Below, piece after piece: positions 20,647-64,000 of a DNA stretch of 64,000 nt. The stretch spans positions 209,854 to 273,853 of the forward strand of contig CBDCWP010000039.1 of NCBI GenBank assembly GCA_965223505.1, read 5' to 3'. Both the position numbers and the translations under genes were made by a program. Numbering within the stretch: position 1 is the first letter of the stretch; the number at the start of each line of letters is the position of its first letter. Under the pieces are notes generated by a model. The model made no database searches. It saw only the letters and a list, made by a program, of their open reading frames with translations, and had not been told where the DNA came from. Source of the DNA: Planctomycetota bacterium (GTDB lineage Bacteria; Planctomycetota; PLA2; JAEUHO01).

Positions 20647-20718
20647 GTCTCTTCGATCTTGACCGGGACTGTGACGTTCTGATCAGGGTAGCGGCTCTCT
20701 CCGGCGCTCCTCGTCGAG

Positions 20719-34640: not shown

Positions 34641-35033
34641 TCGACTTGCCGCTCGTCGTCGGTGCAGACGATGGCGGCCTAGGTGTCACCCGCCGCCTAA
34701 ATGCAACGGGGCGAGCCGAGGACCGTGCTTCGGAGAATGTGACACCGTCAACCAAACCAGCAGACCTCTCACGCCACGATTACGACCGACTCCACGCCCT
34801 TCACGTGGCGCACAAGCATATTGGCGCCGTCGGACTGCGGCATAGCCCCGAAGTCAACCGCCAGACGCCTGACAGTTCAGGGATTCATGATCCCCTTCGA
34901 AGTGCTGGCGCGCTCGCCGGACCGGATCGCTCGCCAGCCCCAAGAACTGGCCACTTCAGGAGAATCTGAGAAACATCGCCGTGCCGTCCTGGAGGCCCGC
35001 ATTTGACCTCGTGGCGCCAAAGGACGCCGCGAC

Positions 35034-35264
35034 ATGCCCAAGAACAACCCCAAGCAGGACCCGGACGGGCTCTTCACCCTGGAGAGAGCCGCCGCGTACC
35101 TCACCATCTCCCAGAGGACCCTTCGCTCGCATCGACAACTGGGACTGATCCCCGTCGTCCAGGTCAGCAAGCGCCGAATCGCTTTCGACAAGGCCGATCT
35201 CGACGCCTACCGCGAGCAGCAAAAGCAGCGCGGCCCACGCCGTCGCTTCGGGAGGCGGTCATGA
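35034..35264 (+). CDS. Excisionase/AlpA-like HTH DNA-binding protein.
   Basis: …LFTLERAAAYLTISQRTLRSHRQLGLIPVVQVSKRRIAFDKADLDAY… The stop overlaps the integrase ATG (ATGA). Confidence 0.65.
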   Translation: MPKNNPKQDPDGLFTLERAAAYLTISQRTLRSHRQLGLIPVVQVSKRRIAFDKADLDAYREQQKQRGPRRRFGRRS

Positions 35265-41533: not shown

Positions 41534-41609
<76 letters not shown>

Positions 41610-41745
41610 GACTCCACGTCGGACGACGGAGGATACCCGGCCCCCTACGATCCCGGACCAATTGCAACCCCCCGACAAACCCCAACAAATAGGGCATCCC
41701 GAAAAAACTCTCGTACGACCCCGCCCCCCATGCATCTGAAAGGGC

Positions 41746-44700
41746 ATGAAGCAGGACCAAGAACTCCTCCAAGCCTGGCTCGCCCACGAAGACCGCGATG
41801 CCCTCGGAGAGCTCTTCGGACGCCACTACCCCGCCGTCTATCAGGTCGTCCTGCGCCTCGTCCACCACGAAACCGACGCCCGCGACGTCGTCCAATCCAC
41901 CTTCCTCAAAGCCCTCCGCAAAGCCGACACCATCCGTCAACCCGACCGCCTGCGCTTCTGGCTCCTGCGCATCGCCGTCAACGAAGCCCGACAACACCAC
42001 CGCCGCGCACGACCCGCCGTCTCGCTGGATGACCTCGCCGACGTCTTCGAAGAAGCCCGACGCGCCACCGTCGAGCACCGCGCCAGCCGCCGCGAGTTCG
42101 AGCTCGCACTCGAACAAGCGCTCGAGACCATGCCCGAACGCCTAAAGACGCCGCTCGTCCTGCACTACTACCAGAGCCTCTCCCTCGCCGAGGTCGCGCA
42201 CATCCTCGAGCTGCCCAAGTCCACGGTGCAGAGCCGCTGCGAACGCGCCGTTCGCTTGCTTCGCAAACGATTCCGCCGTTCCGACAACGCCGCGCTTCTT
42301 CCCGGTCTCGCCGCCTACCTCCCCGACCTCGCGTCGACCGCATCGACGTCCGCCGTCCCGCTCGCCGCAGGAGCCCTCCTCGTGAAAGTCTGGATCCCCA
42401 TCGCCGCCGTCGTGTTCGCCCTCGCCTGGTTCCTCGTTGGCGCGCTTCAAAGCGGCGACCCGGATCGAAACGACATGGCGCGCGACCCGTCCCCGCAGCT
42501 TGGCGACCTTCCCGCCGATGCCGCGACGAACGGCGCTCCCCGACTGCAACCCACGGATCGAGATCCGCCCCGCGAACCCGACGTCGCGAAGCGCGTCGTC
42601 GCCTCCGAAGGGCCCGGCCGCATTCGCGGGCGCGTCGTAGCCCTTCGAACCGGCCGCGGCGTTTCCGGCGCCGAGATCCGTCTCGTTCGAAGCGCCGCCG
42701 CGCGCAGCGCGCCGCGCGAAGCCGCGTCGTTCGAGAACGTCTACGTCTCCGGCCCCGACGGGCGCTTCGTGTGCGACGAGCTGCCGGCGCCGGACGTGTT
42801 CGACCTCTGCGTGCGTCATCCCGACTTCGGCTACGCCGAAGCGTTCGCGGTGCCGACCGCGACCGAAGGCGAAGCGCGGGACCTGGGCGTCGTCTTCCTT
42901 CGCGCCCCGCACCGACTCGAAGGGCGCGTCGTCGACGAGCGGGGCAAGCCCGTCGCGGGCGCGGACGTCCGCGCCGGAACCTGGCGCGAGCAACGCGACG
43001 CGGTGACGTTCGAGCTCTCCGCCTTCGCGCTCCGGGGCGCGACCACGACCAGCGACGCGGCGGGACGCTTCGCGCTCGACGGACTCCCCGCGGGCGTTCA
43101 TCGACTGCGGATCGACCGCACCGGCTACGCGACGGCCCTGCTCGGCGCCGTGCGCGTTCCCGACGCCGGCGTGCTCGACGTCGTCCTGCTCGCGCAGTCG
43201 AACGTCCTCGGACGGATCGTTGACGACGCCGGAGAAGCCGTCGAGGGAGCGCGCATCATGCTGTCGATCTCCGAGTCCCGTCGCCGGGGTGCGCAGGGCG
43301 TGGTGCGCACGGTGCCCTGGAAGACCGTTCGAAGCGATGCGGGCGGTCGCTTTCCCATGTCGCCGCTCCCCGGCGGCGAAGGCTTCGAGCTCGTCGTCGA
43401 GGCGTCGCATCCGGGCCACGCCGACCTCTGGATGGAGCAGCCGATTCCGCAGCAAGGCGTCTTCGAGGTGACGCTTCAGCGGCGCGTCATCCCGAGCGGC
43501 CATCGCGTTCGCGTCACGCCGGTCGTAGCGTCGGGCGCCATCGCGCGGGACGCCAAAGGACGTCTGGTGCTGTTGCAACAGGAGGGCGATCTCGAGCTCG
43601 CCGTCGCCTTCGATGCCGACCGCGGGTTGTTCGAGATCGACGATGTCGCGCCGGGTGCGTGGTACGCGCGACTCGCGGTCAGCGGCTTCGCCCCGGTCGC
43701 GCAGTCCATCGACGTCGGCGACGGGCCGCTGGAGTTGAACATCACGCTTCAGCGCGGTCGAACGCTTCGCGGTCGCATCCTCGACGCCGTGACCGGCGAG
43801 CCGATCGCGGGCGCCACCATCGGGCGTCCCGACAGCGAAGCCCACGTCGTGGTGAGCGACGAGACGGGCGCGTATCTGCTCCCCGGCTTGGACCTCGCGG
43901 AAGGACGGCTCCACGTCGGCGCGCTTCACGCGTACGCACCCGGTTACCTCGCGCGCGGAGTGAACGTTCGATGGCCGAGCGGTGACGTCGCCGAGCAGGA
44001 CGTAAAGCTCCTGCCGCGAAGCGCGCTCGTCTCCGTGCCGGGAACGGTGACGGTCGATGGGCAGCCGGTGCTCGGCGCGCGCGTCGCACTGCAGCCGACG
44101 CGGGGGTCGAGCACGAGGTACGGCGCGAGCTCCCGCGCGGACGGCTCGTTTCGGCTCACGGGGCTTCATCCGGATCACCTCGCCGCGCCCGCGATCCTGC
44201 GTGTCGATCACCCCCGCTTCGCGCCGCACACAGCGCTTCGCGTCGTCGCCGCCGGCGAACCGCTTCAGATCGTCCTCGAGAGCGGCCGGTCCGTATCAGG
44301 GCGTGTCGTCGACATCGAGAACCGGCCGGTGGCGGGCGCGACCGTCGGTTTCGTGACCGGGACCGACGCGGGCGTCATCCAGGAGGATCAGGTCTGGGCG
44401 CTCTCCGGACGGCTTCAGCGCGCGGGCACGAGCATGCCGGACGGCCGCTTCGTGTTGGATCGCGTTCCGTCAGGGGCTGGGCGCGTGCTCGCCTTTCATC
44501 AGCACGGTCGGTGGGTCGCGAAGGACGGGGACGCGGCGGGCGCTACGATCGCCGCCGCCGGCGACGTGGACGGTGTCGAGCTTCGGCTCGAGATCGGACG
44601 CACGCTCAGAGGGGTCGTCGTAGACGACGACGGGCGACCGCTCGCCGGCGCCCGGGTGCGCGCCGACGGCGTCGTCGTCGCCACGCGCACCGACGCGCGC

Positions 44701-45093
44701 GGCCGGTTCGATCTCACCCCTCACTTCGGTGGCGAAGCCCGCGTCACCGTGACCGTCACCCACGAGCGCTATCGAGCCGCCGTCAACGTGCCGGCGCCGG
44801 ACCTTTCGCGCGTGCGCGTACAGGCGCGCGCGACGGGGACGATCGCGGGCCGCGTCGTCGCCGCCGGCGGCAATCCGCTCTCCGGCATGTCCGTTCGGCT
44901 CGTGTACGACGACCCGCCTCCCGTTCGGGCCGTGACGGACGCCGACGGCGTCTTCGTGTTGGCCGGCGTGTACGCGGGCCGAGGACGCATCGAGCTGCGG
45001 ACGAACGCCGAGCAGGACACGGCGGACGTTGGCAGGGAGGTCGACATCCCGCGGTGGACACGCCTCGACCTCGGCGATCTGGTCATGCCGTAG
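41746..45093 (+). CDS. ECF sigma factor fused to a TM segment and a ~900-aa extracytoplasmic region of carboxypeptidase-regulatory-like (CarboxypepD_reg/Cna-B-like) repeats.
   Basis: Residues 1-190 are a sigma-70 region 2 + region 4 (…LSLAEVAHILELPKSTVQSRCERAVRLLRKRF…). A TM helix (IPIAAVVFALAWFLVGAL) follows. Then come at least 9 repeats of the G(R/V)V(V/L)D..G.P(V/I)AGA.V type. Confidence 0.65.
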   Translation: MKQDQELLQAWLAHEDRDALGELFGRHYPAVYQVVLRLVHHETDARDVVQSTFLKALRKADTIRQPDRLRFWLLRIAVNEARQHHRRARPAVSLDDLADVFEEARRATVEHRASRREFELALEQALETMPERLKTPLVLHYYQSLSLAEVAHILELPKSTVQSRCERAVRLLRKRFRRSDNAALLPGLAAYLPDLASTASTSAVPLAAGALLVKVWIPIAAVVFALAWFLVGALQSGDPDRNDMARDPSPQLGDLPADAATNGAPRLQPTDRDPPREPDVAKRVVASEGPGRIRGRVVALRTGRGVSGAEIRLVRSAAARSAPREAASFENVYVSGPDGRFVCDELPAPDVFDLCVRHPDFGYAEAFAVPTATEGEARDLGVVFLRAPHRLEGRVVDERGKPVAGADVRAGTWREQRDAVTFELSAFALRGATTTSDAAGRFALDGLPAGVHRLRIDRTGYATALLGAVRVPDAGVLDVVLLAQSNVLGRIVDDAGEAVEGARIMLSISESRRRGAQGVVRTVPWKTVRSDAGGRFPMSPLPGGEGFELVVEASHPGHADLWMEQPIPQQGVFEVTLQRRVIPSGHRVRVTPVVASGAIARDAKGRLVLLQQEGDLELAVAFDADRGLFEIDDVAPGAWYARLAVSGFAPVAQSIDVGDGPLELNITLQRGRTLRGRILDAVTGEPIAGATIGRPDSEAHVVVSDETGAYLLPGLDLAEGRLHVGALHAYAPGYLARGVNVRWPSGDVAEQDVKLLPRSALVSVPGTVTVDGQPVLGARVALQPTRGSSTRYGASSRADGSFRLTGLHPDHLAAPAILRVDHPRFAPHTALRVVAAGEPLQIVLESGRSVSGRVVDIENRPVAGATVGFVTGTDAGVIQEDQVWALSGRLQRAGTSMPDGRFVLDRVPSGAGRVLAFHQHGRWVAKDGDAAGATIAAAGDVDGVELRLEIGRTLRGVVVDDDGRPLAGARVRADGVVVATRTDARGRFDLTPHFGGEARVTVTVTHERYRAAVNVPAPDLSRVRVQARATGTIAGRVVAAGGNPLSGMSVRLVYDDPPPVRAVTDADGVFVLAGVYAGRGRIELRTNAEQDTADVGREVDIPRWTRLDLGDLVMP

Positions 45094-48791: not shown

Positions 48792-49769
48792 CTACGGCGT
48801 CGGCTGCGAGACCGGCCGCTGCTCCATCTTCAGCCGCATTCGGACTTCCGTGCCCGACTCGTTCCAGCTCACGTCGTCCATGTAGTGCTGCATCAGCGTG
48901 ATGCCGCGGCCGTGGAGCGCCGTGGTGTCCGCGAGCGGCTGCACGCGCGCCTTTTGGTGGTCGAAGCCCCGGCCTTCGTCGCGAACGCGAAACTCCACGC
49001 TCCCGTGACCGTATTCGACGGACACGTGAATCTCGCGCTTCGCGAGCTCCTCGTCCTGCATGCGCTGCTGGATCAACGCGCCGACGCCACCGGGCTCCGC
49101 CATCGCCTTCGTCTTCTCGTCGAAGCTGATTCCGAGATTGCCGTGCTCGAGCGCGTTCGCGAGCGCTTCGTACAACGCGAGCTTGATCTCGGTGACGGGG
49201 ATCTCGTAGGTCGGGTAGTTGTTCTGAAGCTCGCGGCCGAGGTAGGCGACGATCTTCGAGAGCATGGCCTGGTCGTTCGGGATGCTCAGCTCCGTCACGC
49301 GTCGCTCGACCGAGGCGAGCATCTCGACGACGTCGGCGTCTTCCTCGATCGCGCGATAGACGCGGTCGAGGACGAACTCGATCTCGTCGGGGATCAGCGG
49401 CTTCTGGAGGAAGTTGACGGCGCCCAGCTCGAGCGCCTCTTCGACCATCTCCTTGTCGTTCGCCGCCGAGATGATCACGACCGACACGTGCGGGTCGAAT
49501 TCGCGGATCTCCGAGAGGGCGGTGATCCCGTCCATCTTCGGCATCTGGATGTCGAGCAGGATCAGATCAGGGCGCCGCGCCCGCGTGATCTCCAGCGCGG
49601 CTTCGCCGTCCGCCGCCTCGAGCACGTCGAACTGATGGCGTTCCGCGAGGGCGACGAGGATCGCTCGAATGTCCGGCGCGTCGTCGACGATGAGAGCGAG
49701 CGGGGTGCGACGTGACTCGATGGCTCTACTCCTTCGCACCCATGATGTCGATCTCCGGTCGGCATTCAA
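48792..49769 (-). CDS. Response-regulator receiver domain fused to a GHKL (HATPase_c-like) domain.
   Basis: Receiver: …LALIVDDAPDIRAIL…DLILLDIQMPKMDG…ISAANDK… C-terminal: …EALANALEHGN…VRDEGRGF… The start is TTG (49769) or a downstream GTG. Confidence 0.65.
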   Translation of the reverse strand: MNADRRSTSWVRRSRAIESRRTPLALIVDDAPDIRAILVALAERHQFDVLEAADGEAALEITRARRPDLILLDIQMPKMDGITALSEIREFDPHVSVVIISAANDKEMVEEALELGAVNFLQKPLIPDEIEFVLDRVYRAIEEDADVVEMLASVERRVTELSIPNDQAMLSKIVAYLGRELQNNYPTYEIPVTEIKLALYEALANALEHGNLGISFDEKTKAMAEPGGVGALIQQRMQDEELAKREIHVSVEYGHGSVEFRVRDEGRGFDHQKARVQPLADTTALHGRGITLMQHYMDDVSWNESGTEVRMRLKMEQRPVSQPTP

Positions 49770-49933
49770 CCCGGCCGTTCGCCACTCTCCAAGGCTCCCG
49801 TTTCGGGGAAGCCTGGCGCCGCCCCGGCCGGTTCCCTATTCTCCCTCAGCCTCTCAGAATCCAGGGTGCGGGTCGACCCCCCGCCGCGTTCTTGAGAGGG
49901 GCGGACCCGAACCAACTGCCGCGCGGAGGACGC

Positions 49934-52735
49934 TTGAGCACCGACGACCGAGTCGCCTGCCCGAGCTGCGGGACGCGCTTTCGCGTCGCATCCGCCGACG
50001 TCCCCGAAGGCGGCAAGGGCCTCAAGGCCCGCTGTCGGCAGTGCAAGAACGAGTTTCGGGTGACGAACGTCGGCGGCGCGCTGTCCGTTCGGTCCGAGGC
50101 CGCAGCGGCGCCCGCCGAAGCGCCCCCGGAGCCGGCGAAGAAGAAGGCGGCGTCCCGCAAGCGGGCCGCGCGCAAGCGCAAGCGTGTCGCCACCGCGCCG
50201 CCGGCCGAGAACGACAAGCCGGCGATCGACCCGCGCGTCGGGATGTCGACGGAGGGATTCGACACCGGCGACCGAGCCGGCCGCTACGAGATCGAAGGCG
50301 TGCTCGGCCGCGGCGGCATGGGCACCGTCTATCAGGCCTACGATCCCGCCGCCAACCGGCACGTCGCGTTGAAGATCCTGTCGACCAACACCCATGAGCT
50401 CGACGCCCTTCGGTTCCAGCGCGAGGTCGAGGTCCAGGGCAACATCCAGCACGCCCACATCATGCCGATCTTCGACTCGGGCATGGTGGGCGACCGGCGC
50501 TTCTACACGATGGAGCTTCTGAAGGACCCGCTGGACCTGCGCGCGATCACGTCGATGGCGCGCACAGGCGAGCTTCAGAAGGACCCGCGTTTGCGTTCGT
50601 TGGCGCGCATCGAGGGCATGATCGAGCGCATCATGCTCCCGATCTGCGAGGCCGTGTATCACGCGAACGTGAACGAGGGCGTCCTGCACCGCGACATCAA
50701 GCCCGCCAACGTGCTGCTGGACCGCAAGGGCCTGCGCCCCTGGCTCATCGACTTCGGCGTCTCGACGATCCTCGACAAGAGCAATGCGCGGCTCGCTCAC
50801 CTCGACCGCGAGAATCCGATTCCGCTGAGCGGCACGGGGATCCGCGTGACGGGCACGCTGGCGTTCATGCCGTCGGAGCAGGCGCGGGGCGAGGCGAGCC
50901 GGCGCGGCGACGTCTGGGCGCTTGGCGCCTTGCTGCACTACCTGGTCACCGGTGAGCCGCCGCTCGAGCCCGCGGTGCGACCGCAGGTTCCTCGAGCGGA
51001 GCGCATTCGTGGTCTGAAGATGCTGATCGAGATGGCGCGGCGGGACGGCCGCGACGACGAGATCGCCGAATTCGAGCGCAAGCTGGACGAGATCGAGTCG
51101 GGGAGCGAGCGCACGGTCGAGGACCTTCAGCGCGACGTCTCGCTCGGCCGGTATCAGCAGCGCCCGCAGGGACTGAGCCGCGGGTTGGATGCCATCATCG
51201 AGAAGGCGATGTCGGTGGACACCGCCCGCCGCTATCGACATGCCTTGGAGCTCAAGGGCGATCTCATTGCGTGGCTCCAAGGCCGGCCGGTGCGCGCCCT
51301 GGTCAAGTCGTCCGGCGCGGCCGGGAGCGCTTGGTACCGGACGCGCCTCTACCTACGACGCCATCGCACCGGACTCCTCGCGCTCGGCGCCATCGCCTTG
51401 GCCGTGTTGGCGGTGGTCTTCTGGCCGTCGTCCGACGGCCGCGACATCGAAGCGGAGGTCGCGAAGCAGCTCGACGCCGCCTACGCCCACGAAGCCGCGG
51501 GTCGAATCGTCGATGCGCGCAACGCGGGCAAGGAAGCGCTGGTCCTCGATCCACGCAACGAAGACGTGTTCGCGCTGCTCCAGCGCCTCGACCGCGCGAC
51601 CCGGCTCTTGATCGACTTCGAGCGCGCACGCGCGTTGCGCAAGGAAGCCGCGACGGCGTTCGCCGCGAACGAGACGGACACCGCGCTTGGCAAGCTGGCG
51701 GCGCTCGACGAAGTCCTGCGGGAACGGATTCTTCCGGTGCTGCCGGGGACCGCGCCAAAGGAGCGCCACGCCGAAGCCGAAGCGCTGCTGGCCTTCGCGA
51801 GAGCCGAGCAGCCGCTCGTCGTCACGAACGCGCCGCCGAACGCCGCATACTTCCTGATTCCGGTTCTCGGAAGCGTCGGACCGACGCGCTGGGACGAGGC
51901 GCGCGAGCTCACGACCACGGACGGACAGCTCGTCGACGCCCGTGTTCGGTTCGGCAAGTGGATCCTGCGCATCCAAGCCGGCGAGGGCGAGGTGCTCGTT
52001 CCGTTCGAAGCCGACCCCGGCGCGCAGGGCGTGACGCTCGCGTGCCCGTTCGATCCGTCCAAGCTCGACGGCGGCACTCGCTACGTCGGCGCGGGGCGCC
52101 CGCGCTGTCCGCTCGGCGTGGTTCCGGTGACGGCCCTGCTCTGGGACCGCACCGAGGTGACCGTGGAGCGCTACGCGCGGTTCCTGGACACGCTCGCGCC
52201 GGAGGAACGTCGCCGCCGCGTACCGCGCGTCGCCGGTGTGCTCGGCGCGCCCGAGCGCGTGCTCTGGGAACGTGACGGGGATCGCTTCAAGCCGCCGGCG
52301 GGGGCGTTGCGACTGCCGGTGGACGGCATCTCGCTCTACGACGCGCGGGCCTTCGCGCGCTGGGAGAAGAAGCGTTTGCCGACCGCGGCGGAGTGGAGCT
52401 GGGCGGCGACCGGTCCCGATGGACGCCTGTGCGCCGTCGGTCCCATCGAAGACCTCTGGAACGATACGGCGCACGTGGGCCGGCCGAGCGACGGCGTCGG
52501 CAGCATCGGCGTCATGTCGGCCGACCAAAGCCCGTTCGGTCTGCTCGACATGGCCGGCAACGTCGCCGAGCTCACGTCCACCCTGACGACGCTCGACGGC
52601 GTGAACGGTTGGATCGTGATGGGGGGCTCGTACCTCGAAGGCCCAGCGCGCGCGATCGTGACCAACGGCCGCACCGTGCCCGGATGGCTGCCGCTGCAGG
52701 GCGTCGGGTTTCGCTGCGTGCGCGACGCCGAATGA
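49934..52735 (+). CDS. Ser/Thr protein kinase with an N-terminal zinc-ribbon and a C-terminal FGE-sulfatase (SUMF1-like) domain.
   Basis: TTG start after GGAGGA. Zn ribbon: CPSCGTRFRV…CRQCKNEFRV. Kinase: GRGGMGTVYQA…ALK…HRDIKPANVLL…DFG. C-terminal: …LPTAAEWSWAATG… and …MAGNVAELTS…. Confidence 0.75.
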   Translation: MSTDDRVACPSCGTRFRVASADVPEGGKGLKARCRQCKNEFRVTNVGGALSVRSEAAAAPAEAPPEPAKKKAASRKRAARKRKRVATAPPAENDKPAIDPRVGMSTEGFDTGDRAGRYEIEGVLGRGGMGTVYQAYDPAANRHVALKILSTNTHELDALRFQREVEVQGNIQHAHIMPIFDSGMVGDRRFYTMELLKDPLDLRAITSMARTGELQKDPRLRSLARIEGMIERIMLPICEAVYHANVNEGVLHRDIKPANVLLDRKGLRPWLIDFGVSTILDKSNARLAHLDRENPIPLSGTGIRVTGTLAFMPSEQARGEASRRGDVWALGALLHYLVTGEPPLEPAVRPQVPRAERIRGLKMLIEMARRDGRDDEIAEFERKLDEIESGSERTVEDLQRDVSLGRYQQRPQGLSRGLDAIIEKAMSVDTARRYRHALELKGDLIAWLQGRPVRALVKSSGAAGSAWYRTRLYLRRHRTGLLALGAIALAVLAVVFWPSSDGRDIEAEVAKQLDAAYAHEAAGRIVDARNAGKEALVLDPRNEDVFALLQRLDRATRLLIDFERARALRKEAATAFAANETDTALGKLAALDEVLRERILPVLPGTAPKERHAEAEALLAFARAEQPLVVTNAPPNAAYFLIPVLGSVGPTRWDEARELTTTDGQLVDARVRFGKWILRIQAGEGEVLVPFEADPGAQGVTLACPFDPSKLDGGTRYVGAGRPRCPLGVVPVTALLWDRTEVTVERYARFLDTLAPEERRRRVPRVAGVLGAPERVLWERDGDRFKPPAGALRLPVDGISLYDARAFARWEKKRLPTAAEWSWAATGPDGRLCAVGPIEDLWNDTAHVGRPSDGVGSIGVMSADQSPFGLLDMAGNVAELTSTLTTLDGVNGWIVMGGSYLEGPARAIVTNGRTVPGWLPLQGVGFRCVRDAE

Positions 52736-55178: not shown

Positions 55179-57008
55179 CTACAGCAATGAGAAGAGCTCG
55201 TTGACGACGTCGGTCGAAGCGCGGTAGTTGCCGCCCGCGGTGACGATCGCGTACGGAGACGGCTCCTCCCGGGCGCACGCGAGGCCCAGCGCAGAGATCG
55301 CGACGGCGCGCGTGAGATCCTGTTGACCGTCGTCGACGGCGAGCTCGATCAGCTGAGACACGGCTTGATCGTCGCGCATGCGCGCGAGCGCGCGTCCGGC
55401 CTCGCCCTTCACCACGTGCGATCGGGCTTCCTCCAGCTCCTTCAGGAGGAGCGCTCTCGACGTCGCGCTCGGAAACGAGGACAACGCGCTCGCCGCCAGG
55501 ACGCGCAACCACTCGTTGCGTCGCTCCTTCACGGTCGCCTCCAACGCCGACCCGATGTCGGCCGGCGGCTTCGACGCGTACGAGAGCGCGAGCGCCGCGT
55601 ACCCGCGCAGCGAGTGCTCCCGCTTGGGATCACGGAGGATCGCCGCGAGCGCCGGGAGCGATGCCTCGTCGTCGGCGATCCCCAATGCGACCGCGAAGGC
55701 GTTCTGGCGGCGCGGGTCCAGCTTCTTGGTCGTCAATCCCATCCGCAGCGTCGCGATCGACGCCTTGTGTCGTTGCGCGAAGCGCGCCTGGTTGCCCGCC
55801 TCCCGGAGGAAGAGCGAAAGCGCCAGGGCGGCGTGGGGCCGGTTGAGGTAGTGCCCGTTCCGGGCGATCTCGACCAGATGATCGACCGCCTCCGCGTCGA
55901 AGGTGGCCGCCTTGGTGCGCGCAGCATGCGCTGACAGCACACCCAGGCTCATCAGCGCGAAGTTGTTCGTCGTCAGGTCCCGTGTCTTGAGGTGGCTGTC
56001 GATGAGCCCCTTCGCGATCCGGCTTCGTCCCTTGGCGGAGACGTGCCGGCTGAGCGTCCCCAGCGCCACGGCGGCGCTGCGGCGAATGGTCCGATCCCCG
56101 CGACGGCTCCCGATCCGGCGTAGCAGGGGGGTGATGTCGTCCTCCGTACCCAGCGAACCGAGCGCCAGGGCGATGTAGCTCGCCGAGACGCTCGTGAAGG
56201 TCGAAGGGGTCGAGCGACGGCGGTGTTCCCGCATCCACGCGCGTAGTTGCTCGCGCTGCGGCTCCGTGATCGAGCTGCGGGGTTGCGACCGCAAAGCCAA
56301 CAGCAGTCCGATGTAGAGGTCCGGGTAGGGATAGCCGTCGCGATCGAGTCGATCGAACAGCCGCGCCGTCGTCTTGGCCGCGTCGCCCGTGGGCTGGTCG
56401 CCCAACATGCCGATGGCGATCGCCGCGAATGCCCGTGCGCGACCCTGGAAGTCGCCGTCGTCGAAGATCCCGAACAGGAATTGGCGAACGCCGTCGAGCG
56501 TGGCCGCGTCGAGCTGGTGCGCGGGATCGTCGCGGCGCAGCAGACCCAGCGACAGGGCCGCCGCCTCGAGCACAATCACGTCGTACATCTTGTGCTTGGC
56601 TCTCTTCTCGAGGCCTTCTTTCAAGAGCTCGATGTCGGACGCATCGCGTCGAGGCATCCGAGCGAACGCGAGAAATGCCGCCGACTGCGTGTCCTGATGA
56701 CCGGCCGCCTTCGCGTCCGACATCAACCGGAGGGTCGCCGCGCGCGCTCTCTCGAGCGTTTCGGCCTTCAGCGCGGGACGCGGCTCCTCGCGAACGCGCC
56801 GCTCGATGGGCTCGACGTTGTAGTGCAACCAGAACGGCCAGTCGTCGAACGTCATGCTGCGCGGGCTGTGCCCGGCGCCCGGCGGCACCATGCCGCCGGG
56901 ACCGCGGAAGCGACCCCCGTGCGCGTGTGCGTCCGCCGCAAAGAGTGAGAGCGCCCATGCGACGAGCACGACGCGTCGCATCACCACCGCGGTCTTCGAT
57001 CCCTGCAT
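55179..57008 (-). CDS. Secreted PBS-lyase/HEAT-repeat protein, paralog of 52799-54865.
   Basis: The signal peptide (…MRRVVLVAWALSLFAADAHA) is followed by HGGRFRGPGG. The start is at 57008 or 56981. The 127-bp tandem repeats lie immediately 5' of the gene. Confidence 0.65.
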   Translation of the reverse strand: MQGSKTAVVMRRVVLVAWALSLFAADAHAHGGRFRGPGGMVPPGAGHSPRSMTFDDWPFWLHYNVEPIERRVREEPRPALKAETLERARAATLRLMSDAKAAGHQDTQSAAFLAFARMPRRDASDIELLKEGLEKRAKHKMYDVIVLEAAALSLGLLRRDDPAHQLDAATLDGVRQFLFGIFDDGDFQGRARAFAAIAIGMLGDQPTGDAAKTTARLFDRLDRDGYPYPDLYIGLLLALRSQPRSSITEPQREQLRAWMREHRRRSTPSTFTSVSASYIALALGSLGTEDDITPLLRRIGSRRGDRTIRRSAAVALGTLSRHVSAKGRSRIAKGLIDSHLKTRDLTTNNFALMSLGVLSAHAARTKAATFDAEAVDHLVEIARNGHYLNRPHAALALSLFLREAGNQARFAQRHKASIATLRMGLTTKKLDPRRQNAFAVALGIADDEASLPALAAILRDPKREHSLRGYAALALSYASKPPADIGSALEATVKERRNEWLRVLAASALSSFPSATSRALLLKELEEARSHVVKGEAGRALARMRDDQAVSQLIELAVDDGQQDLTRAVAISALGLACAREEPSPYAIVTAGGNYRASTDVVNELFSLL

Positions 57009-57061
57009 GCCCCGCACGCCGCACCTCGCGTGCCACTCTGGCCACGTGTGTCGAACGCAGG

Positions 57062-57540
57062 CGTTCTTCGTTGCGGTCTTTCGAGGGGCGAGGAAGCGTC
57101 CTCGTGATGTAGGTGCGATGCGAGCGAGGACGCGGACGCTCACCCTTCGGAGGGGGGCCTGGGGGCACGTGCGGAGTGGGCCTTGAACCTCGATGGAGAC
57201 GTTCTTCGTTGCGGTCCTTCGAGTGCCGCGAGGAAGCGTCCTCGTGATGTAGGCGCGATGCGGAGCAAGGACGCGGGCGCTCACCCTTTAGAGGGGGTCC
57301 TGGGGGCAGCGCCCCCAGAGTGGAGACGTTCTCCGCCGGGGTCTTTCGAGCGCCGCGAGGAAGCGTCCTCGTGATGTAGGCGCGATGCGGAGCAAGGACG
57401 CGGGCGCTCACCCTTGAGAGGGGGTCCTGGGGGCAGCGCCCCGAGTGGAGACGTTCTCCGCCGGGGTCTTTCGAGCGCCGCGAGGAAGCGTCCTCGTGAT
57501 GTAGGCGCGATGCGGAGCAAGGACGCGGGCGCTCAGGCTT
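57062..57540. repeat. Four tandem copies (137, 128, 125 and ~89 bp) of a hairpin-rich ~127-bp repeat element.
   Basis: Unit: cgttct(t/c)cg…tttcgag.gccgcgaggaagcgtcctcgtgatgtaggcgcgatgcggagcaaggacgcgggcgctcaccctt.gagggggg.cctgggggca.cgcccc…gagtggaga. Internal palindromes are gaggaagcgtcctc and ctgggggcagcgcccccag. Confidence 0.85.
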
Positions 57541-57612
57541 TGGACGCTAGTTGGAGTACTTAGGGAAGAAAAGGGCAGGTAGTTCAGCTTCAGAACCACC
57601 TCCTCCTTCCCG

Positions 57613-57870
57613 ATGCGGATGTCGACACTCGATGACAGAATCGAGACCCTTACTCTGCGCCAAACAGAAGCTGAAGAGCGAGCGACGCATGAGATCTGGA
57701 AGTCGCGGGAGCTGAACAAGTCCGGTGACACTGATGCCGGGAAGTCCGCTGAGGAGCGCGCCCAAGAACTCCTTGCCGATGTGAAGCGCATTGGGGCTGA
57801 GATTGACGAAGCGCTTGATGAACGCAGCAAAGTCAAGCGACTTCTCGCCTCGTTGGGCGAGTCCCCATAG
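57613..57870 (+). CDS. Possible small coiled-coil protein of 85 aa.
   Basis: Charged helical ORF; no SD seen. Confidence 0.25.
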   Translation: MRMSTLDDRIETLTLRQTEAEERATHEIWKSRELNKSGDTDAGKSAEERAQELLADVKRIGAEIDEALDERSKVKRLLASLGESP

Positions 57871-58393
57871 CGCTTCGGCTGAAGGGACCCCATGCGTGGC
57901 CCGCGTCGTTTACGGCACTGGATCATCCAACAGCTCTAGGCGCCTAGCTGCTAGCTGTGAGATTGGGACGCTTCGGACGCTTCGCATACGACGCAGTCTT
58001 GAGACGTCTGACCACCTGGCTACAGTCCGAACGTGGTCGCGTCAGTAGTTTCTCGAACTCGTTCGAGCTCTACCCAGTGTCTGTCTTGCAACTGCTCTTG
58101 GTGGAATGGCTGCTGGCGCGCCACACCCACTTCCCGGACTTTGGTTTCTCAGATTTGGTCTTGACGGCCCCAAGCGCCTGAATACCGTGGAGCTTGCAAG
58201 ACAGACACGGCTAGCTGGGAGCTAGAGCGTTCGAGGGGGACTGGGGTTCTCTTCGCGGCGACTTGTGCGCCGGCGGCCACTTCGGCCATTCGTGAAGTCG
58301 ATGCTGCAACCGCTGCACATCGACGCGGGATGGTCATTGGAAAGACATGTTGGCGAGAGCGGCCTCGAGAGCGTTGCCGAAAGCGCAGCGACG

Positions 58394-58855
58394 ATGGAGA
58401 CACTGAGCGTGTCGCCGATCGCATACCCCAGCCAGCAAGACCAGCTTCGGCATGGGCACTCCAACTCCTTCGGCCGTCCGCCTCTGACGTTGCTCAAGAA
58501 CTTTCCCTATGCCGCGGACCTCGTTCAGCCTTTTCGCACGAAGTGGGTCCCTGTTGACTCCGAGTTTCAGTTCGCGACAGTGCACGTCCATTGCCAGACG
58601 CTCTTTCCCGCAACGTTGCCTTCGCCGGGCGTAACGATCGGCGTGTTCACTTCATTCGATACCGTCGAGTTCACTTCATTCGATACCGTCGAGTTCTATC
58701 TGATCGGAACGTCAGTCAACGTGACGGGGACGGGCTCTCAAAGTGTCCCCGTAACGACAGATCTTGGCCCAATGGTGCGCGTGGAGATCGCGAATGGTGC
58801 AACTGTGCCCGTCTTCGCCACGCTCAGTGTTTGGCTGCAACCCAAGAGTACCTAG
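58394..58855 (+). CDS. Member 1 of the tandem small-protein paralog family; the start is uncertain and the gene has an internal 24-nt tandem duplication.
   Basis: The C-terminal 125 aa align with members 2-4: LLKNF…HVHCQT…FDTVE…SVWLQPK. The only in-frame ATG is at 58394, which gives a 28-aa N-terminal extension. Confidence 0.45.
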   Translation: METLSVSPIAYPSQQDQLRHGHSNSFGRPPLTLLKNFPYAADLVQPFRTKWVPVDSEFQFATVHVHCQTLFPATLPSPGVTIGVFTSFDTVEFTSFDTVEFYLIGTSVNVTGTGSQSVPVTTDLGPMVRVEIANGATVPVFATLSVWLQPKST

Positions 58856-58871
58856 TCGAAGAGCAAGGGAG

Positions 58872-59234
58872 ATGAGTATGGGACCGCTAGTATTGGCAAA
58901 GAACTTTCCCGCCGTCGTGGATGAGAATCAGACATTCGTCAGTGATTGGCTCCCCATGGACAGCGAGTTCCAGAACGGAACCATCCACGTCCATTGCCAG
59001 ACGATCTCGCCGAACTCGGGCGTTACGACGGGATTCGAAGTCCAGGTCGAGACGTCCTACGACACAGTCGAGTCGAACCAGATCGGGACGACGATCAATG
59101 TGATCGCAACAGGCAGCTCCAACTCTGCGATCAGCGCCAACATCGCCGCGATGGTGCGCCTGAAGATCGAGAACTCCGAGACCTTCCCGATGTTCGGCAT
59201 CCTGAGCGTGTGGCTCCAGCCCAAGAGCGAATAG
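58872..59234 (+). CDS. Member 2 of the tandem small-protein paralog family (~120 aa).
   Basis: AAGGGAG SD. Product: MSMGPLVLAKNF…IHVHCQT…YDTVESNQIGTTI…VRLKIEN…ILSVWLQPKSE. Confidence 0.6.
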   Translation: MSMGPLVLAKNFPAVVDENQTFVSDWLPMDSEFQNGTIHVHCQTISPNSGVTTGFEVQVETSYDTVESNQIGTTINVIATGSSNSAISANIAAMVRLKIENSETFPMFGILSVWLQPKSE

Positions 59235-59254
59235 TTCGCCGGAGGGCTCGGTAG

Positions 59255-59614
59255 ATGGCGCCGATCGTTTTAGCCAAGAACTTCTCATTCGTTGCAGCCT
59301 CCGGGCAGACGCTGCTTGGCGACTGGATCTTCATTGGGGATCTGAGTGAGTTTCAGAACGCGAACGTTCACGTGCACAGCCAGACGCTATCGCCGTCAGG
59401 CGGAGTCTCGGGTCTTGCGGTGGATGTGCGCAGCTCATTCGATCGAGTCGAGAGCTATCAAGTTGGAGGGAGCGTCTCTGTGACTCTCCCTGGCAGTTAC
59501 GACCAGACCATCTCCGCCAATCTCGCTGATTACGTGCGACTGGCCCTTACGAACAACACGGGTGGATTGCTCATCGGGATCGTCAGCGTGTGGCTGCAGA
59601 TGAAGGCAGAGTAA
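59255..59614 (+). CDS. Member 3 of the tandem small-protein paralog family.
   Basis: GGAGGG SD. Product: MAPIVLAKNF…VHVHSQT…FDRVESYQVG…VRLALTN…VSVWLQMKAE. Confidence 0.6.
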   Translation: MAPIVLAKNFSFVAASGQTLLGDWIFIGDLSEFQNANVHVHSQTLSPSGGVSGLAVDVRSSFDRVESYQVGGSVSVTLPGSYDQTISANLADYVRLALTNNTGGLLIGIVSVWLQMKAE

Positions 59615-59639
59615 GGTTTGAGAGAGAAGGGCTTGGAAG

Positions 59640-59993
59640 ATGGGACCGCTGGTTCTGGCGAGCAACTTCCTGATGGCAGCTGGTTCAGGCCAGGTGTTTA
59701 TCGGAGATTGGCTGCCGATCAACAGCCAGTATCAGCTCGCCACGATCCACGTTCACTGTCAGACGATCACGCCGTTCCCGCCCGTCACGGGCTACGAGGT
59801 GATGGTGGATAGTTCATTCGACACCGTCGAGAGCAATCAGATCGGAACCACGATCGTCGTGTCGACGACGGGGAGCCTGAGTTCCCCGGTGACAACCAAC
59901 CTTGGACCGTTTGTGCGCTTGCGAATCGAGAACCCTGAGTCGGTGGCGATGCTGGCGATCATGAGTGTCTGGTTGCAGTTGAAGAAGACGTAA
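59640..59993 (+). CDS. Member 4 of the tandem small-protein paralog family.
   Basis: AGAAGGG SD. Product: MGPLVLASNF…IHVHCQT…FDTVESNQIGTTI…VRLRIENPES…MSVWLQLKKT. Confidence 0.6.
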   Translation: MGPLVLASNFLMAAGSGQVFIGDWLPINSQYQLATIHVHCQTITPFPPVTGYEVMVDSSFDTVESNQIGTTIVVSTTGSLSSPVTTNLGPFVRLRIENPESVAMLAIMSVWLQLKKT

Positions 59994-60290
59994 GTAGCCG
60001 TCGAGTCGATGCCATGGTTCGCGGGTAGCGAGGAGCTAAACAAGAATGCCGGATTTCACACAGACTTACTCGCGTAACAACGACGACCTTAACGGCGTGG
60101 ACGCCACGAACAACAGTGAGTACGAAACAGCCAAGCTGACTGTGACGTTGTCGGCCAACACGGACGACTGTAAGTCGATAGCGAGGACGACGACTCCGAC
60201 GAGAACTGATACGCCGTCGTCAACTGATACGCCGGCGGATCTGTCGCGCCCGCTGGGGTTCACCGAGGAGGATAGACTTCCGGGAGGTGG

Positions 60291-61688
60291 AGGGTGTACC
60301 GTTCTTTCTGTAAATGGCTCCCCGGAGGAGAGGCGCTCGCTTCGCTTGAATCAGCTAGCTGATTCAAGCGAAGCGGGCGCGCCGCCATCTCCCGGGGCGA
60401 ACTGAGTGGCGGATCAACGCCGTACCTTTGCAGGTAACGACACCACGCAAAGGAGGAACGACGTGACCCACCACGAACAGCGTACGCCTTGGGGCGACGC
60501 ACTGGAAGCGCTCAGCGAGAACGGGTTCGACGGCATGGCTGAGGCGATGCGGGTGCTGGTGAACGAGGCCATGAAGGTCGAACGCAGTGCCTTCCTCGGC
60601 GCCGAGCCCCACGAACGCACGGATCAGCGCCGCGGCTACGCCAACGGCTTCAAGCGCAAGCGCGTCAGAACCCGCTTGGGCGAGATCGACGTCCAGGTGC
60701 CCCAGGTTCGCGACGTCGAGGGCGGCGACACGTTCTACCCCTCCAGCCTCGAACGCGGCCAGCGAAGCGAGAGAGCGCTCACGCTGGCCCTGGCGGAGAT
60801 GTACGTCCAGGGCGTCTCGACGCGGCGTGTCGAGGCGATCACGAAGGTGCTTTGCAACGGCCTGGAGATCAGCTCCACGAGCGTGTCTCGAGCAGCTGCG
60901 CTGCTCGACGAGGAGCTCGAGCGCTGGCGCACACGTCCGCTCGGCGCGTTCAAGTACCTCGTACTCGACGCTCGCTACGAGAAGGTGCGCCACGGCGGAT
61001 CGGTGCGCGACTGCGCTGTGCTGATCGCCATCGGCGTCGATTCTCACGGCAAGCGCAGCGTGCTGGGAACGAGCGTGAGCCTCTCGGAGGCCGAGGTCCA
61101 TTGGCGCGAGTTCCTCGCTTCTCTCCAGGATCGCGGCCTTCACGGCGTCGAGCTCATCACCAGCGACGGCCACAAGGGCATTGCGGCCGCGCTGGCGGCG
61201 CGGTTCGCCGGCGTGGCCTGGCAGCGCTGCCAGTTCCACCTGCAGCAGAACGCGCAGAGCTACGTTCCGCGCCAGAAGCTTCGACGCGACGTTGCCGCTG
61301 ACCTTCGCGCCGCGTTCAATGCGACGTCGCGTCGCGAGGCCGAAGAGAAGCTCAAGGCCTTCGTGAAGAAGTGGGACAAGCCCGCGCCCGACCTGGCGCG
61401 CTGGGCCGAAGAGAACATTCCGCAGGGCTTCACCGTGTTCGATCTCGGCCTGAACGAAGCGCAGCGCAAGCGCCTTCGCACCACCAACAGCCTCGAGAAC
61501 CTGAATCAGCAGATCCGCCGCCGCACTCGCGTCGCCGGATTGTTTCCGAACGAAGCGTCCTTGCTGCGGCTCGCAAGCGCGGTGCTCATCGAGATCAGCG
61601 AGGAATGGGAAACCGGACGGAGGTACTTGCCGAGGGACGACGCTTGATCAACCGCTCAGCGATTTACAGAAAGAACGTTGCTCTGCCC
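60291..61688 (+). mobile_element. Intact IS256-family insertion sequence (1398 bp) with a 9-bp TSD, gggaggtgg.
   Basis: Same termini as the copy at 20719-22116, and identical in the terminal and flanking stretches compared. Direct repeats are at 60282-60290 and 61689-61697. Confidence 0.9.
60406..61647 (+). CDS. IS256-family transposase, 413 aa.
   Basis: Protein is identical to the transposase at 20834-22075. Confidence 0.9.
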   Translation: MADQRRTFAGNDTTQRRNDVTHHEQRTPWGDALEALSENGFDGMAEAMRVLVNEAMKVERSAFLGAEPHERTDQRRGYANGFKRKRVRTRLGEIDVQVPQVRDVEGGDTFYPSSLERGQRSERALTLALAEMYVQGVSTRRVEAITKVLCNGLEISSTSVSRAAALLDEELERWRTRPLGAFKYLVLDARYEKVRHGGSVRDCAVLIAIGVDSHGKRSVLGTSVSLSEAEVHWREFLASLQDRGLHGVELITSDGHKGIAAALAARFAGVAWQRCQFHLQQNAQSYVPRQKLRRDVAADLRAAFNATSRREAEEKLKAFVKKWDKPAPDLARWAEENIPQGFTVFDLGLNEAQRKRLRTTNSLENLNQQIRRRTRVAGLFPNEASLLRLASAVLIEISEEWETGRRYLPRDDA

Positions 61689-62398
61689 GGGAGGTGGGTG
61701 GCCGGCGAAGATCCCCGGCGGTGTCCCTTGGGGTTCGCCGGACGCGGAAACCATCGAAGAGCCGCCTCCAGTCGAGACAGAGGACGACGAACCTGCTGGA
61801 ACAGAGGGTGGTGGAGACACTTCTGTCGTTTGGAGATGCACCGGCGAAGTCAAGATCACGCTTACCGTGAAGGCAGAGCAGAAGACCAGTGATCCTCTAT
61901 TCATGGAGGGGGGGCAGGGCTACCGACTGAGAGGTGCAGTCATTGGGAGGAGAGAACCGATCATCACCGGTCCCTTCGTGCAGCCTCCTCCTCCGGGCCT
62001 CGGAGAGCCAGCCCCCTTGGAGTTGACCGCGACGATTGATCTAGGTACGTTGCCGTGTACGGGTGGTCGCCTGCGAGGGACAGTGTACGCCAACATGATA
62101 AACAGCAGGCACCGAGTTCGACTGCCCGCGAGTAACGGGCGCCCAGAGAGAACTAGGGTCCTGCCTCGAACGCAGTTGCAGATCAGTTTCACATTGAACG
62201 TCAAGGAATGCGGAGATGTGGAGTGCCAAAGGTTGGAGACCGAAGTACCTGCGTGGTTGCACCAGACCTATGACCGTCGATTCCGGATGCGGCGCTCCAA
62301 CATGCTCAGACACACGGGAAGCAACTTCGAACGTGCCCCCGCGACCGGTTGGCCTCAACCGTTCCGTAGGAAGGTGGAGCGTTAGGCGAGGGGGGGGT

Positions 62399-62866
62399 GT
62401 GCACGAACGTAGACTCTTGGCTTCATCGCTGTGCTTGCTGGCACTCGTCCTGAGTGCTTGCGCAAGTGCCTCCAGTCAGCGACTGCCCGCATACGAGCCC
62501 TACGTGTTTCCTGTGCTCGAGTGCCGTCTTGTCCGCGCGGAGGAGTACGTCATGGTCGTGCGATCGAACCGGACGTGGTGGATTGTGGACCAAACGCTCT
62601 CGGATCATGACAAGAACAAGGTACAAGTGGGCACTTGGCGGGCGCTTGATCAATCTGTGTTGCAGTTTCGGCGATACGGTAGCCGGCGGCCAACCGGCTA
62701 TCTAAGGTGCGATCTATCGGACCGCTCCGGAACAACGTGGGCCTTCTCTCGCGATCAGGGATTCCAGCGTTCGACTCGCTTGGTCGTGTCCGACCCGAGT
62801 GAAGTCCATATCCTATGGAATGCGCTCTCTCCGGTGAAAGACCGACTAGCTCTGGCCGCCCGATGA
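62399..62866 (+). CDS. Lipoprotein of 155 aa.
   Basis: GTG start after GAGGGGGGG. Signal peptide with lipobox LVLSAC. Confidence 0.55.
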   Translation: MHERRLLASSLCLLALVLSACASASSQRLPAYEPYVFPVLECRLVRAEEYVMVVRSNRTWWIVDQTLSDHDKNKVQVGTWRALDQSVLQFRRYGSRRPTGYLRCDLSDRSGTTWAFSRDQGFQRSTRLVVSDPSEVHILWNALSPVKDRLALAAR

Positions 62867-63011
62867 CCCAGTTTTCGCGCTGCGGCTTGAAGCATCCCCT
62901 TGCCGAGAACGACAGCCAGACGTCCGTATCCACAGGAGCTTGAAGGAGACACGGACACGCGGCGACGGCTGCAGTCGCTCGTGGCGGGCAGCGATAGCAC
63001 TCTCCGAGTTC

Positions 63012-63524
63012 CTACTTGACGTTTGCTTGCTCCTTCGTCAGCGCAGTCGCAGCAACCGCGATAGCGTCAAACATGTTGGAGTGATAGCGCGTCTTCCATT
63101 TGCGGTTGAGGCCGAGAAAGGCCCGAAGCCGCGGGTATCCCTGACAGATAGCGGAAGCGACTCGAGCCTTGCTGGCGTTTCCGTCTCCGGTGACTCGTTT
63201 TTTCGCTGTGCTCGGGGAGACCAGCACGACGCGCACTCCCAGCGCCTCCGCTAGTGACTGGATCTCGTCGGCAACCAGGCGCAGCAAGCCAGAGTGAGAG
63301 CTTGCTGAGAAGAAGATGCGCTCGATGACCACAGCCTCGGGTTGATAGGCCTCGATGAGGCGGCCAACGACCTTGCGTGCTGCCGCCAGAGTCTGTTGCG
63401 GTCGGCACTCCCAGATCTCAAAGACCTGATGATGAATGAGCTCACGGCCTTCAAGCACAGCCGTACCCAGATACCTCGTTCCCGGATCTATCCCCAGCAC
63501 CCTTTCTGGTCTTGGACCCTTCAT
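63012..63524 (-). CDS. RuvC-like Holliday-junction resolvase family protein.
   Basis: N-terminal VLGIDPGTRYLGTAVLEG matches the RuvC ILGIDPGsrvtGyGV motif. The protein is ~170 aa and carries acidic residues at RuvC-like positions (E…D). Confidence 0.65.
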   Translation of the reverse strand: MKGPRPERVLGIDPGTRYLGTAVLEGRELIHHQVFEIWECRPQQTLAAARKVVGRLIEAYQPEAVVIERIFFSASSHSGLLRLVADEIQSLAEALGVRVVLVSPSTAKKRVTGDGNASKARVASAICQGYPRLRAFLGLNRKWKTRYHSNMFDAIAVAATALTKEQANVK

Positions 63525-63594
63525 GAAAGCAGGGTGCGGTACTTCTCCAGGCAAGCCAGCCAGGAAGAGTTCCCAAGGAAGATCGAATCCGCTC

Positions 63595-63804
63595 CTAGGG
63601 CCCAGGTGGATCGCCCAGAAGCGCTCTGAGCTTCCACCAATAGCGCCGAGCCACTCGGTACTCGCTCAGTTCCCAGGCCTTCCAGGTGCGGTGAGCGACA
63701 CCCACCCGGACTGCAGCCTCACGCTGCAATAGACCGAGCCGTCGTCGGGACCGGCGAATCCAGTTGCTCTCAGCTCGTCCGTCGAGCCGAGGAAATGGCG
63801 GCAC
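63595..63804 (-). CDS. Possible XRE-like HTH protein (69 aa, GTG start).
   Basis: …RRRLGLLQREAAVRVGVAHRTWKAWELSEY… resembles an XRE-family HTH. No SD is evident. Confidence 0.3.
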   Translation of the reverse strand: MPPFPRLDGRAESNWIRRSRRRLGLLQREAAVRVGVAHRTWKAWELSEYRVARRYWWKLRALLGDPPGP

Positions 63805-63839
63805 CGGGACTGACAAAGTGGCATTCCAACAAGGCTCCA

Positions 63840-64000
63840 AACCCCTCACCCTTCGGAGGGGGGCCTGGGGGCACGTGCGGAGTGGGCCTTGAACCTCGAT
63901 GGAGACGTTCTTCGTTGCGGTCCTTCGAGTGCCGCGAGGAAGCGTCCTCGTGATGTAGGCGCGATGCGGAGCAAGGACGCGGGCGCTCACCCTTTAGAGG
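63840..64000. repeat. A further copy (partial or more than one) of the ~127-bp hairpin repeat seen at 57062-57540.
   Basis: ccctcacccttcggaggggggcctgggggcacgtgcggagtgggccttgaacctcgatggagacgttcttcgttgcggtccttcgagtgccgcgaggaagcgtcctcgtgatgtaggcgcgatgcggagcaaggacgcgggcgctcaccc is essentially identical to copies a and b at 57.1-57.3 kb. It runs off the window end. Confidence 0.8.

Follow-up and report, generated by a model that had tools for sequence, protein, structure and literature searches.

The genome of a member of the Planctomycetota (contig CBDCWP010000039.1) carries, in the 64,000-nucleotide stretch analysed here and referred to as the window, a tandem array of four co-directional open reading frames (ORFs) of one protein family, P1 to P4, which occupies positions 58394-59993 of the forward strand and is followed by a larger gene, X, that is split by an insertion sequence (IS), and by a gene for a small lipoprotein (Table 1). 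The four are separated by only 22, 20 and 25 nt. Their products share 40-57% identity in pairwise comparison and 32 invariant columns in a MAFFT alignment, and they score E = 4e-45 to 7e-56 against a hidden Markov model (HMM) of the family; a six-frame scan of the whole window with this HMM returned exactly four copies and no fifth. The original prediction, made from the sequence alone, had described four tandem paralogs of about 118 residues, 40-55% identical, each with its own Shine-Dalgarno (SD) sequence and none with a signal peptide. The paralogy, the degree of identity and, on direct reading of the four N-termini, the lack of signal peptides are all confirmed, while P1 departs from the description in its length and in its upstream signal. 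The core of P1 begins at a point (~58475) that has neither a start codon nor an SD, and the sole sensible start is the ATG at 58394, which adds an N-terminal extension of 27-30 residues; P1-type proteins on other contigs are also extended. Clear SD sequences are found only before P2, P3 and P4. In addition, P1 contains a perfect, in-frame tandem duplication that doubles FTSFDTVE within the most conserved loop of the family (SFDTVE) and is unique to this genome.

Downstream of the array, the original prediction of an Asn/Asp/Thr-rich gene split by IS256 and followed by a lipoprotein was borne out by a Transposase_mut match, a target duplication, a restorable ORF and a lipobox. The 8-bp duplication, GGGAGGTG, flanks the element at 60282-60289 and 61689-61696, and removal of the element together with one copy of the duplication restores X as an ORF of 310 aa. 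As the restored protein aligns end to end, and over the junction, with two intact proteins (P0149 and P0150, 324 and 310 aa; 43% identity; E = 8e-65 and 1e-51), X is a real gene that was recently disrupted. It has no signal peptide, and in place of a Cys cluster it has only CGDVEC. The GTG start of the lipoprotein gene sits 13 nt past the stop codon of X. The same IS256-family element occurs three times in the window, as two identical full copies and one partial copy of 1061 bp with 99.6% identity, and this near-identity indicates recent transposition in this genome.

Table 1. Features of the window and of related loci on other contigs (labelled L001 to L021); positions without a locus label refer to the window.
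Feature	Position	Strand	Remarks
P1	58394..58855	+	153 aa from ATG 58394; jelly-roll core from ~58475
Tandem duplication in P1	58645..58696	+	perfect 24 bp, in frame, 2.2 copies
P2	58878..59234	+	118 aa; SD AAGGGAG; signature MDS.FQNGT
P3	59255..59614	+	119 aa; SD GGAGGG; signature SFVAASGQ; HVHSQT replaces HVHCQT
P4	59640..59993	+	117 aa; protein used for the structure model
Gene X, 5' part	60046..60289	+	SD GAGGAG; N-terminus Asn/Asp/Thr-rich
IS256-family element	60290..61688	+	Transposase_mut (PF00872), 413 aa, E = 5e-101; full copy
Gene X, 3' part	61697..62385	+	resumes after the IS
Lipoprotein gene	62399..62866	+	155 aa from GTG 62399; SD GAGGGGGG; lipobox LSAC
Repeat array, left flank	57059..57535		~127-138-bp tandem repeat, ~3.5 copies
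Low-GC island	57536..63848		6.3 kb; 4.9 kb without the IS
85-aa ORF	57613..57870	+	charged, predicted coiled-coil; no SD; doubtful gene
RuvC-like resolvase gene	63012..63554	-	right end of island; PF02075, E = 3e-13
Small ORF	63595..63810	-	reads as a helix-turn-helix (HTH) protein (direct reading only); upstream of the RuvC-like gene
Repeat array, right flank	63845..64000		100% identical to 57139-57294 (156 bp); runs off the window end
IS256-family element, further full copy	20718-22116
IS256-family element, partial copy	17382-18442
Tyrosine-recombinase gene	35003-36694	+	PF00589
tRNA-Pro	41534-41610	-
CarboxypepD_reg protein with ECF-type sigma-70 domain	41746-45093	+
Ser/Thr kinase-FGE-sulfatase fusion	49712-52735	+
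HEAT-repeat proteins, ~700 aa	52799-55033; 55179-57284	-
Ser/Thr kinase-FGE-sulfatase fusion, other locus	L015 6628-10209
Downstream proteins checked for a Cys cluster	L002 1265-2815; L001 10383-11765; L006 1378-1854; L007 3213-3599; L014 10382-11617; L021 2205-3272
CarboxypepD_reg proteins by the module	L002 2830-6000; L007 2-2374; L012 1218-3050; L014 7760-9928; L020 2634-5054
Relic P4-type 3' end	L001 ~12430-12516		just behind the lipoprotein gene
Frameshifted P3-type gene	L002 437-848
P0116, fusion with Collar domain	L012 54-797; L013 850-1593

The family is rare and, as the original prediction had it, unrecognised. None of the four proteins has a match better than E = 0.01 in Pfam, PHROG, NCBIfam, PADLOC or PDB sequences, and when 89 aligned members (47 + 42) were scanned singly against Pfam no weak match recurred, the only hits being scattered singletons (DUF2242 three times, DUF6385 twice); the clear profile match to a known family that would speak against the prediction was not found in any of the curated libraries. 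Among 1.84 billion sequences, searched exhaustively with the HMM, there were 86 representatives (at 50% identity), some of which form a distant branch with lengths of 110-115 aa, and 57 clusters at 90% identity, all of about 117 aa and unnamed, were found among 5.8 billion proteins. The only named genomes with the family are metagenome-assembled genomes (MAGs) labelled Planctomycetota and Chloroflexia. Relatives were found neither in IMG/VR (2.9 million contigs), INPHARED (50,697 phage records) and the PLSDB plasmids nor in a scan of JGI metagenome contigs, and literature searches gave no description of the family. The fold class of these proteins is ordinary; none of the libraries queried has a description of the family, of its fixed array of four genes or of the cassette-like neighbourhood.

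The AlphaFold model of P4 is an eight-strand jelly-roll (pLDDT 90.9), and the structure search that the original prediction had proposed gave generic jelly-roll neighbours and no family assignment. The nearest solved structures found by Foldseek are binding modules, namely PirA, domain III of Cry5B, the ligand-binding domain of Eph and type-B carbohydrate-binding modules (CBMs; CBM22, CBM29 and CBM16), and further generic neighbours are birnavirus VP2 and small phage proteins. The best TM scores (0.71-0.75) were obtained with small uncharacterised phage proteins and tail or receptor-binding domains in BFVD. PirA is matched at TM 0.48/0.50 (3x0t_A, E = 8e-4) and 0.51/0.58 (7fcn_A) and the three CBM families at TM 0.4-0.54; the CBM and Eph matches are no worse than those of PirA.

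The near-invariant residues of the family alternate along three predicted strands (L6/K8/F10 in strand 1, H37/H39/Q41 in strand 3 and S109/W111/Q113/K115 in strand 8), with hydrophobic positions between them. In a jelly-roll, strands 1, 3 and 8 are neighbours in the BIDG sheet, and the alternation therefore points to a conserved exposed face, which may bind a ligand or form a contact between subunits; the conserved W24, W111, H37, Q41 and K115 are placed on the model solely from their alternation along predicted strands. The motif HVHCQT, which contributes the two His residues, had been regarded as strictly conserved and as a possible metal site; strict conservation does not hold. The Cys falls at an alternating hydrophobic position of the buried type, and it is replaced in most of the family, by Leu, Val, Ile or Thr in much of it, by Leu, Val or Ile in the single-copy clade and by Ser in P3 of the window. 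Both His residues of H-x-H are replaced in the distant branch. Because the Cys is not conserved and the His residues can be lost, a metal site is not supported.

The array is not confined to one genome. A 77-kb contig of another MAG (L001) bears four family genes, encoding 144, 116, 120 and 117 aa with spacers of 18-28 nt, in the same P1-P2-P3-P4 order, and each type can be told by residues shared between the window and L001: PYAAD, QPF.T.W and the N-terminal extension in P1, MDS.FQNGT in P2, SFVAASGQ in P3 and LM.A..GQ in P4. A neighbour-joining tree resolves the four types as clades, together with a separate clade of single-copy genes. Other contigs provide fragments of the same arrangement: L002 starts with P3-P4, and the four pairs of proteins that share short contigs are all of neighbouring types (P1+P2, P2+P3 twice, P3+P4), as assigned by the tree and not by gene order. 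The P3-type gene of L002 is frameshifted, HMM positions 1-23 lying in one frame and 28-117 in another, as a result of either a sequencing error or decay to a pseudogene. Other lineages have one or two family copies with the same kind of neighbours. The recurrence of four types in the same order, with their own signatures, favours non-redundant subunits, possibly of a hetero-oligomer, over a diversification of immunity or cargo genes.

What follows the family genes is constant in its layout and variable in its sequence. The family gene or genes are always trailed, closely and co-directionally, by a gene for a protein of 200-516 aa without a signal peptide, and the proteins that were read directly are rich in Pro and Gly and have Cys clusters. 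In the window, L001, L004, L015 and L017 a lipoprotein-like gene comes next (about 180-216 aa in several loci). Partner proteins resemble each other within lineages, for example L001_460 and L012_273 (E = 1e-48), L004_321 and L007_405 (E = 1e-20), L006_158 and L007_128, and L015_182 and L017_194. A common hidden domain was considered and rejected, as BLAST and phmmer gave only such within-lineage pairs and the family HMM matches no partner. No match to Pfam, NCBIfam or PADLOC was found for X, L001_460 and L002_516, or to NCBIfam and PADLOC for L007_405 and L014_411, and all three PDB-sequence searches with neighbouring proteins, X and L001_460 among them, were empty. Nearly all of the downstream proteins checked, although mutually unrelated, have a Cys cluster (DCGCSEC, SCKCRSGC, HCGNCGLGCC, DCADCKSGCADC, DCGCCED or GCAQCGSG). 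In L001 the relic of a P4-type 3' end (…AFPVVGILSVWLQLRRT and …LGPAVLENTEAFPVVGILSVWLQLRRT, each followed by a stop) suggests that the cassette of partner and lipoprotein genes was exchanged through recombination at the 3' end of P4. Two fusions belong to the wider family. P0116, identical in sequence in two samples, is a distant member with the family domain N-terminal to a phage tail Collar domain (PF07484), and P0127, which may be either a recombination product or an assembly chimera, starts as a SAM-like integrase N-terminus and continues, in frame, as the C-terminal half of a family protein.

P1 to P4, X and the lipoprotein gene lie on a discrete island with a GC content of 0.57-0.60 (the IS excepted) against about 0.68-0.70 in its flanks. 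The island splits one unit in an array of tandem 127-bp repeats, with CTCA at both junctions: the left flank ends in …gcgggcgCTCA, the right flank resumes with CTCAcccttcgg…, and joining the two rebuilds the repeat unit. The repeats were considered as att sites, an idea dropped in favour of insertion into a pre-existing unit; they have no Rfam match, and they give rise to spurious long ORFs (MSARVLAPHRAYITRTLPRG...). An Rfam scan of the island itself gave only a chance-level microRNA match inside the IS. The doubtful 85-aa ORF at the left end of the island has no homolog in any of the other loci, and the HTH and RuvC-like pair at its right end was not found next to family genes elsewhere; in L018 there is an HTH gene, but the 171-aa protein next to it does not resemble RuvC, so the pair was discarded as a conserved neighbour. 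GC also dips over the array of L001, where an integrase, an excisionase-like HTH_17 protein and a DUF3987 protein lie 2-8 kb away in a block whose GC, unlike that of the array region, is host-like. L001, L003, L020 and P0127 contain integrase genes or what is left of them, and in four loci (L003, L004, L007 and L017) tRNA genes are found no more than about 1 kb from the family and partner genes.

The reading that we tentatively prefer, as possible rather than probable, is that the array, X and the lipoprotein gene make up a mobile three-part module, in which a constant jelly-roll binding complex, hetero-oligomeric in this clade, is combined with an exchangeable partner and a lipoprotein accessory that is possibly protective. 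P1 to P4 would be four non-redundant subunits of one small, non-enzymatic complex of the CBM/PirA-like beta-sandwich type, made together with the lineage-specific partner (X, 310 aa here) and the small lipoprotein from one tightly spaced operon. The conserved oligomer would be the constant part for binding or recognition, and its exposed BIDG-sheet face would bear the near-invariant K8/F10, H37/H39/Q41 and S109/W111/Q113/K115; the downstream protein would act as the exchangeable working part, the lipoprotein as an envelope-located accessory or self-protection factor, and the whole would travel as a horizontally mobile cassette. That the four form a hetero-oligomer we infer from the conserved gene order, the type-specific residues and the tight operon spacing. 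The reading as a whole also draws on the binding modules among the fold neighbours, the Collar fusion of P0116, the partners that vary between lineages, the relic in L001 and the low-GC islands with tRNA and integrase genes close to several loci. The copy of the module in this genome is probably not active, or is decaying, given that X is split by the IS and that P1 has an 8-aa duplication in the most conserved loop.

Several observations weigh against this reading. The bootstrap values of the four type clades are moderate (55, 44, 72 and 46%, with 70% for the whole four-copy clade) and the P1 orthologs are not singled out by raw identity, so that the four types are recognized mainly by their signatures and by synteny; the full four-gene array is found at two loci only. 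Partners of different lineages share no detectable similarity in all-against-all BLAST and phmmer comparisons, and for this reason may not be functional equivalents, and homology of the lipoproteins from one lineage to another cannot be demonstrated. Among PDB entries the fold finds only weak, generic matches, with TM about 0.5, and neither the jelly-roll proteins nor X have a signal peptide, which leaves their route to the envelope or to a target unexplained. A more specific form of this reading, in which the four paralogs build a hetero-oligomeric jelly-roll particle or ring, borne on a mobile element and used for delivery or recognition with exchangeable partners, is unlikely; it would be either a polymorphic effector system of a new class or a minimal capsid-like shell of four 117-aa subunits.

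It is likewise unlikely that the array encodes structural proteins (capsid, decoration or tail-fibre) of an unrecognized small integrated virus or satellite, with the four single-jelly-roll paralogs arranged in a pseudo-symmetric shell or fibre tip. Single-jelly-roll capsid proteins such as the shell domain of birnavirus VP2 have the same eight-strand architecture, the N-terminal extension of P1 could pass for their arm, and several paralogs could make a pseudo-symmetric shell; the best TM scores belong to small phage proteins and to domains of the tail or receptor-binding kind, discrete islands carry the module, and in L001 the integrase, the HTH_17 protein and the DUF3987 protein are only a few kilobases off. 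P0116 gives a further link, to Collar-domain tail proteins of the T4 gp12 type, as do BFVD matches to minor tail and host-specificity proteins. However, P1 to P4 have no Collar domain and no phage genes nearby, and their fold scores with capsid proteins are weak; at 117 aa they are much smaller than such proteins and small for a capsid. The 4.9-kb island has no replication, packaging or other virion genes, the family has no PHROG match and no relative in IMG/VR or the phage and plasmid collections, and the integrase block of L001 differs from the array region in being host-like in GC.

A binary toxin resembling PirA/PirB of Vibrio parahaemolyticus and Photorhabdus, with the jelly-roll as receptor-binding part, the downstream protein as toxic part and the lipoprotein as immunity factor, is distinctly improbable, even though several traits recall it. 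PirA, like Cry domain III, is a jelly-roll of ~110 aa without a signal peptide (Foldseek 3x0t_A, 7fcn_A, 8hhe), its matched chains of 100 and 112 aa are close to the 110-119 aa of the family, and its small gene immediately precedes that of a larger partner, both on mobile DNA; the Cry5B match, the IS and mobile-element context and the variable downstream cassettes with their orphan relic would also fit. On the other hand, there is no sequence similarity, the TM of about 0.5 (0.48-0.58) is no better than that of the CBM or Eph-domain matches, and PirA is one gene, to which four fixed paralogs and a following lipoprotein gene are foreign. PirB is Cry domain I/II-like and of about 440 aa, whereas the partners searched here have no Endotoxin/PirB or other toxin domain in Pfam, NCBIfam or PADLOC, X and L001_460 find nothing among PDB sequences, and the Pro/Gly/Cys-rich proteins read directly appear beta-rich or disordered and not helical.

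Little probability, and no more than for the toxin, is given to a stand-alone soluble lectin or metal-binding protein, homo- or hetero-oligomeric, to which the neighbouring genes are irrelevant. Type-B CBMs (CBM22, CBM29, CBM16) and galactose-binding-domain-like sandwiches (Eph, GOLD, the furin P domain) are the most numerous fold neighbours, and polar and aromatic residues (Trp, His, Gln and Lys), together with H-x-H, appear to be conserved on one exposed sheet face, as in such modules. CBMs, however, are usually appended to a glycoside hydrolase, while P1 to P4 stand alone without an enzyme domain or profile match, the His and Cys are not kept in the distant branch, and a closely spaced, co-directional partner gene always follows. 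The original prediction had suggested either structural subunits, which fit better, or diversified immunity or cargo genes; this last view, a lineage-specific expansion in which each copy neutralizes or carries a different partner, is very improbable. Diverged tandem copies with variable segments between conserved motifs, in a mobile-island setting, would suit it. A distant genome, however, has the four types in unchanged order, each with its type-specific conserved residues; upstream of the array there is no toxin gene, and lineages with one or two copies keep the same kinds of neighbour. The remaining probability, beyond the preferred three-part module and these alternatives, belongs to something not yet imagined.

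Some neighbours recur in the surroundings of the family genes. In five other loci, genes for large multi-repeat proteins of the CarboxypepD_reg (transthyretin-like) type adjoin the module directly, and in the window one such protein, fused to an ECF-type sigma-70 domain, is encoded 13 kb upstream of the array; the association looks commoner than chance. An Oar-like TonB-dependent exporter was rejected as an identity for them, as they are 'beads on a string' repeats without plug or barrel matches. Directly left of the island are two paralogous HEAT-repeat proteins with signal peptides and the motif AHGG(Q/R)FRGPGG; HEAT_2 proteins are present near family genes in L017 and L021 too, and their relation to the pair in the window is putative. 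A fusion of a Ser/Thr kinase with an FGE-sulfatase domain is found near the family locus both in the window and in L015, which may reflect mere commonness of this architecture in these phyla. Further upstream, the region between 18 and 42 kb of the window has a lower GC content (about 0.61-0.65), IS copies and an NYN-domain gene, and the tyrosine-recombinase and tRNA-Pro genes are also located there; the region as a whole may form a larger genomic island.

No question of long standing depends on the function of the array, and if its products were only an orphan lectin-like protein, their value would be that of a seed for a new family entry. If the preferred reading of a mobile module with a constant hetero-oligomer holds, it would add an uncatalogued family, with no Pfam or DUF entry or solved structure and with fewer than 100 sequence clusters in billions, in which a fixed four-subunit beta-sandwich complex moves on small islands together with swappable partner genes. 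It would be an extra small module in the set of binding and effector systems, mobile and polymorphic, that high-GC environmental bacteria possess, and a compact model of how a homo-oligomer turns into an obligate hetero-oligomer.

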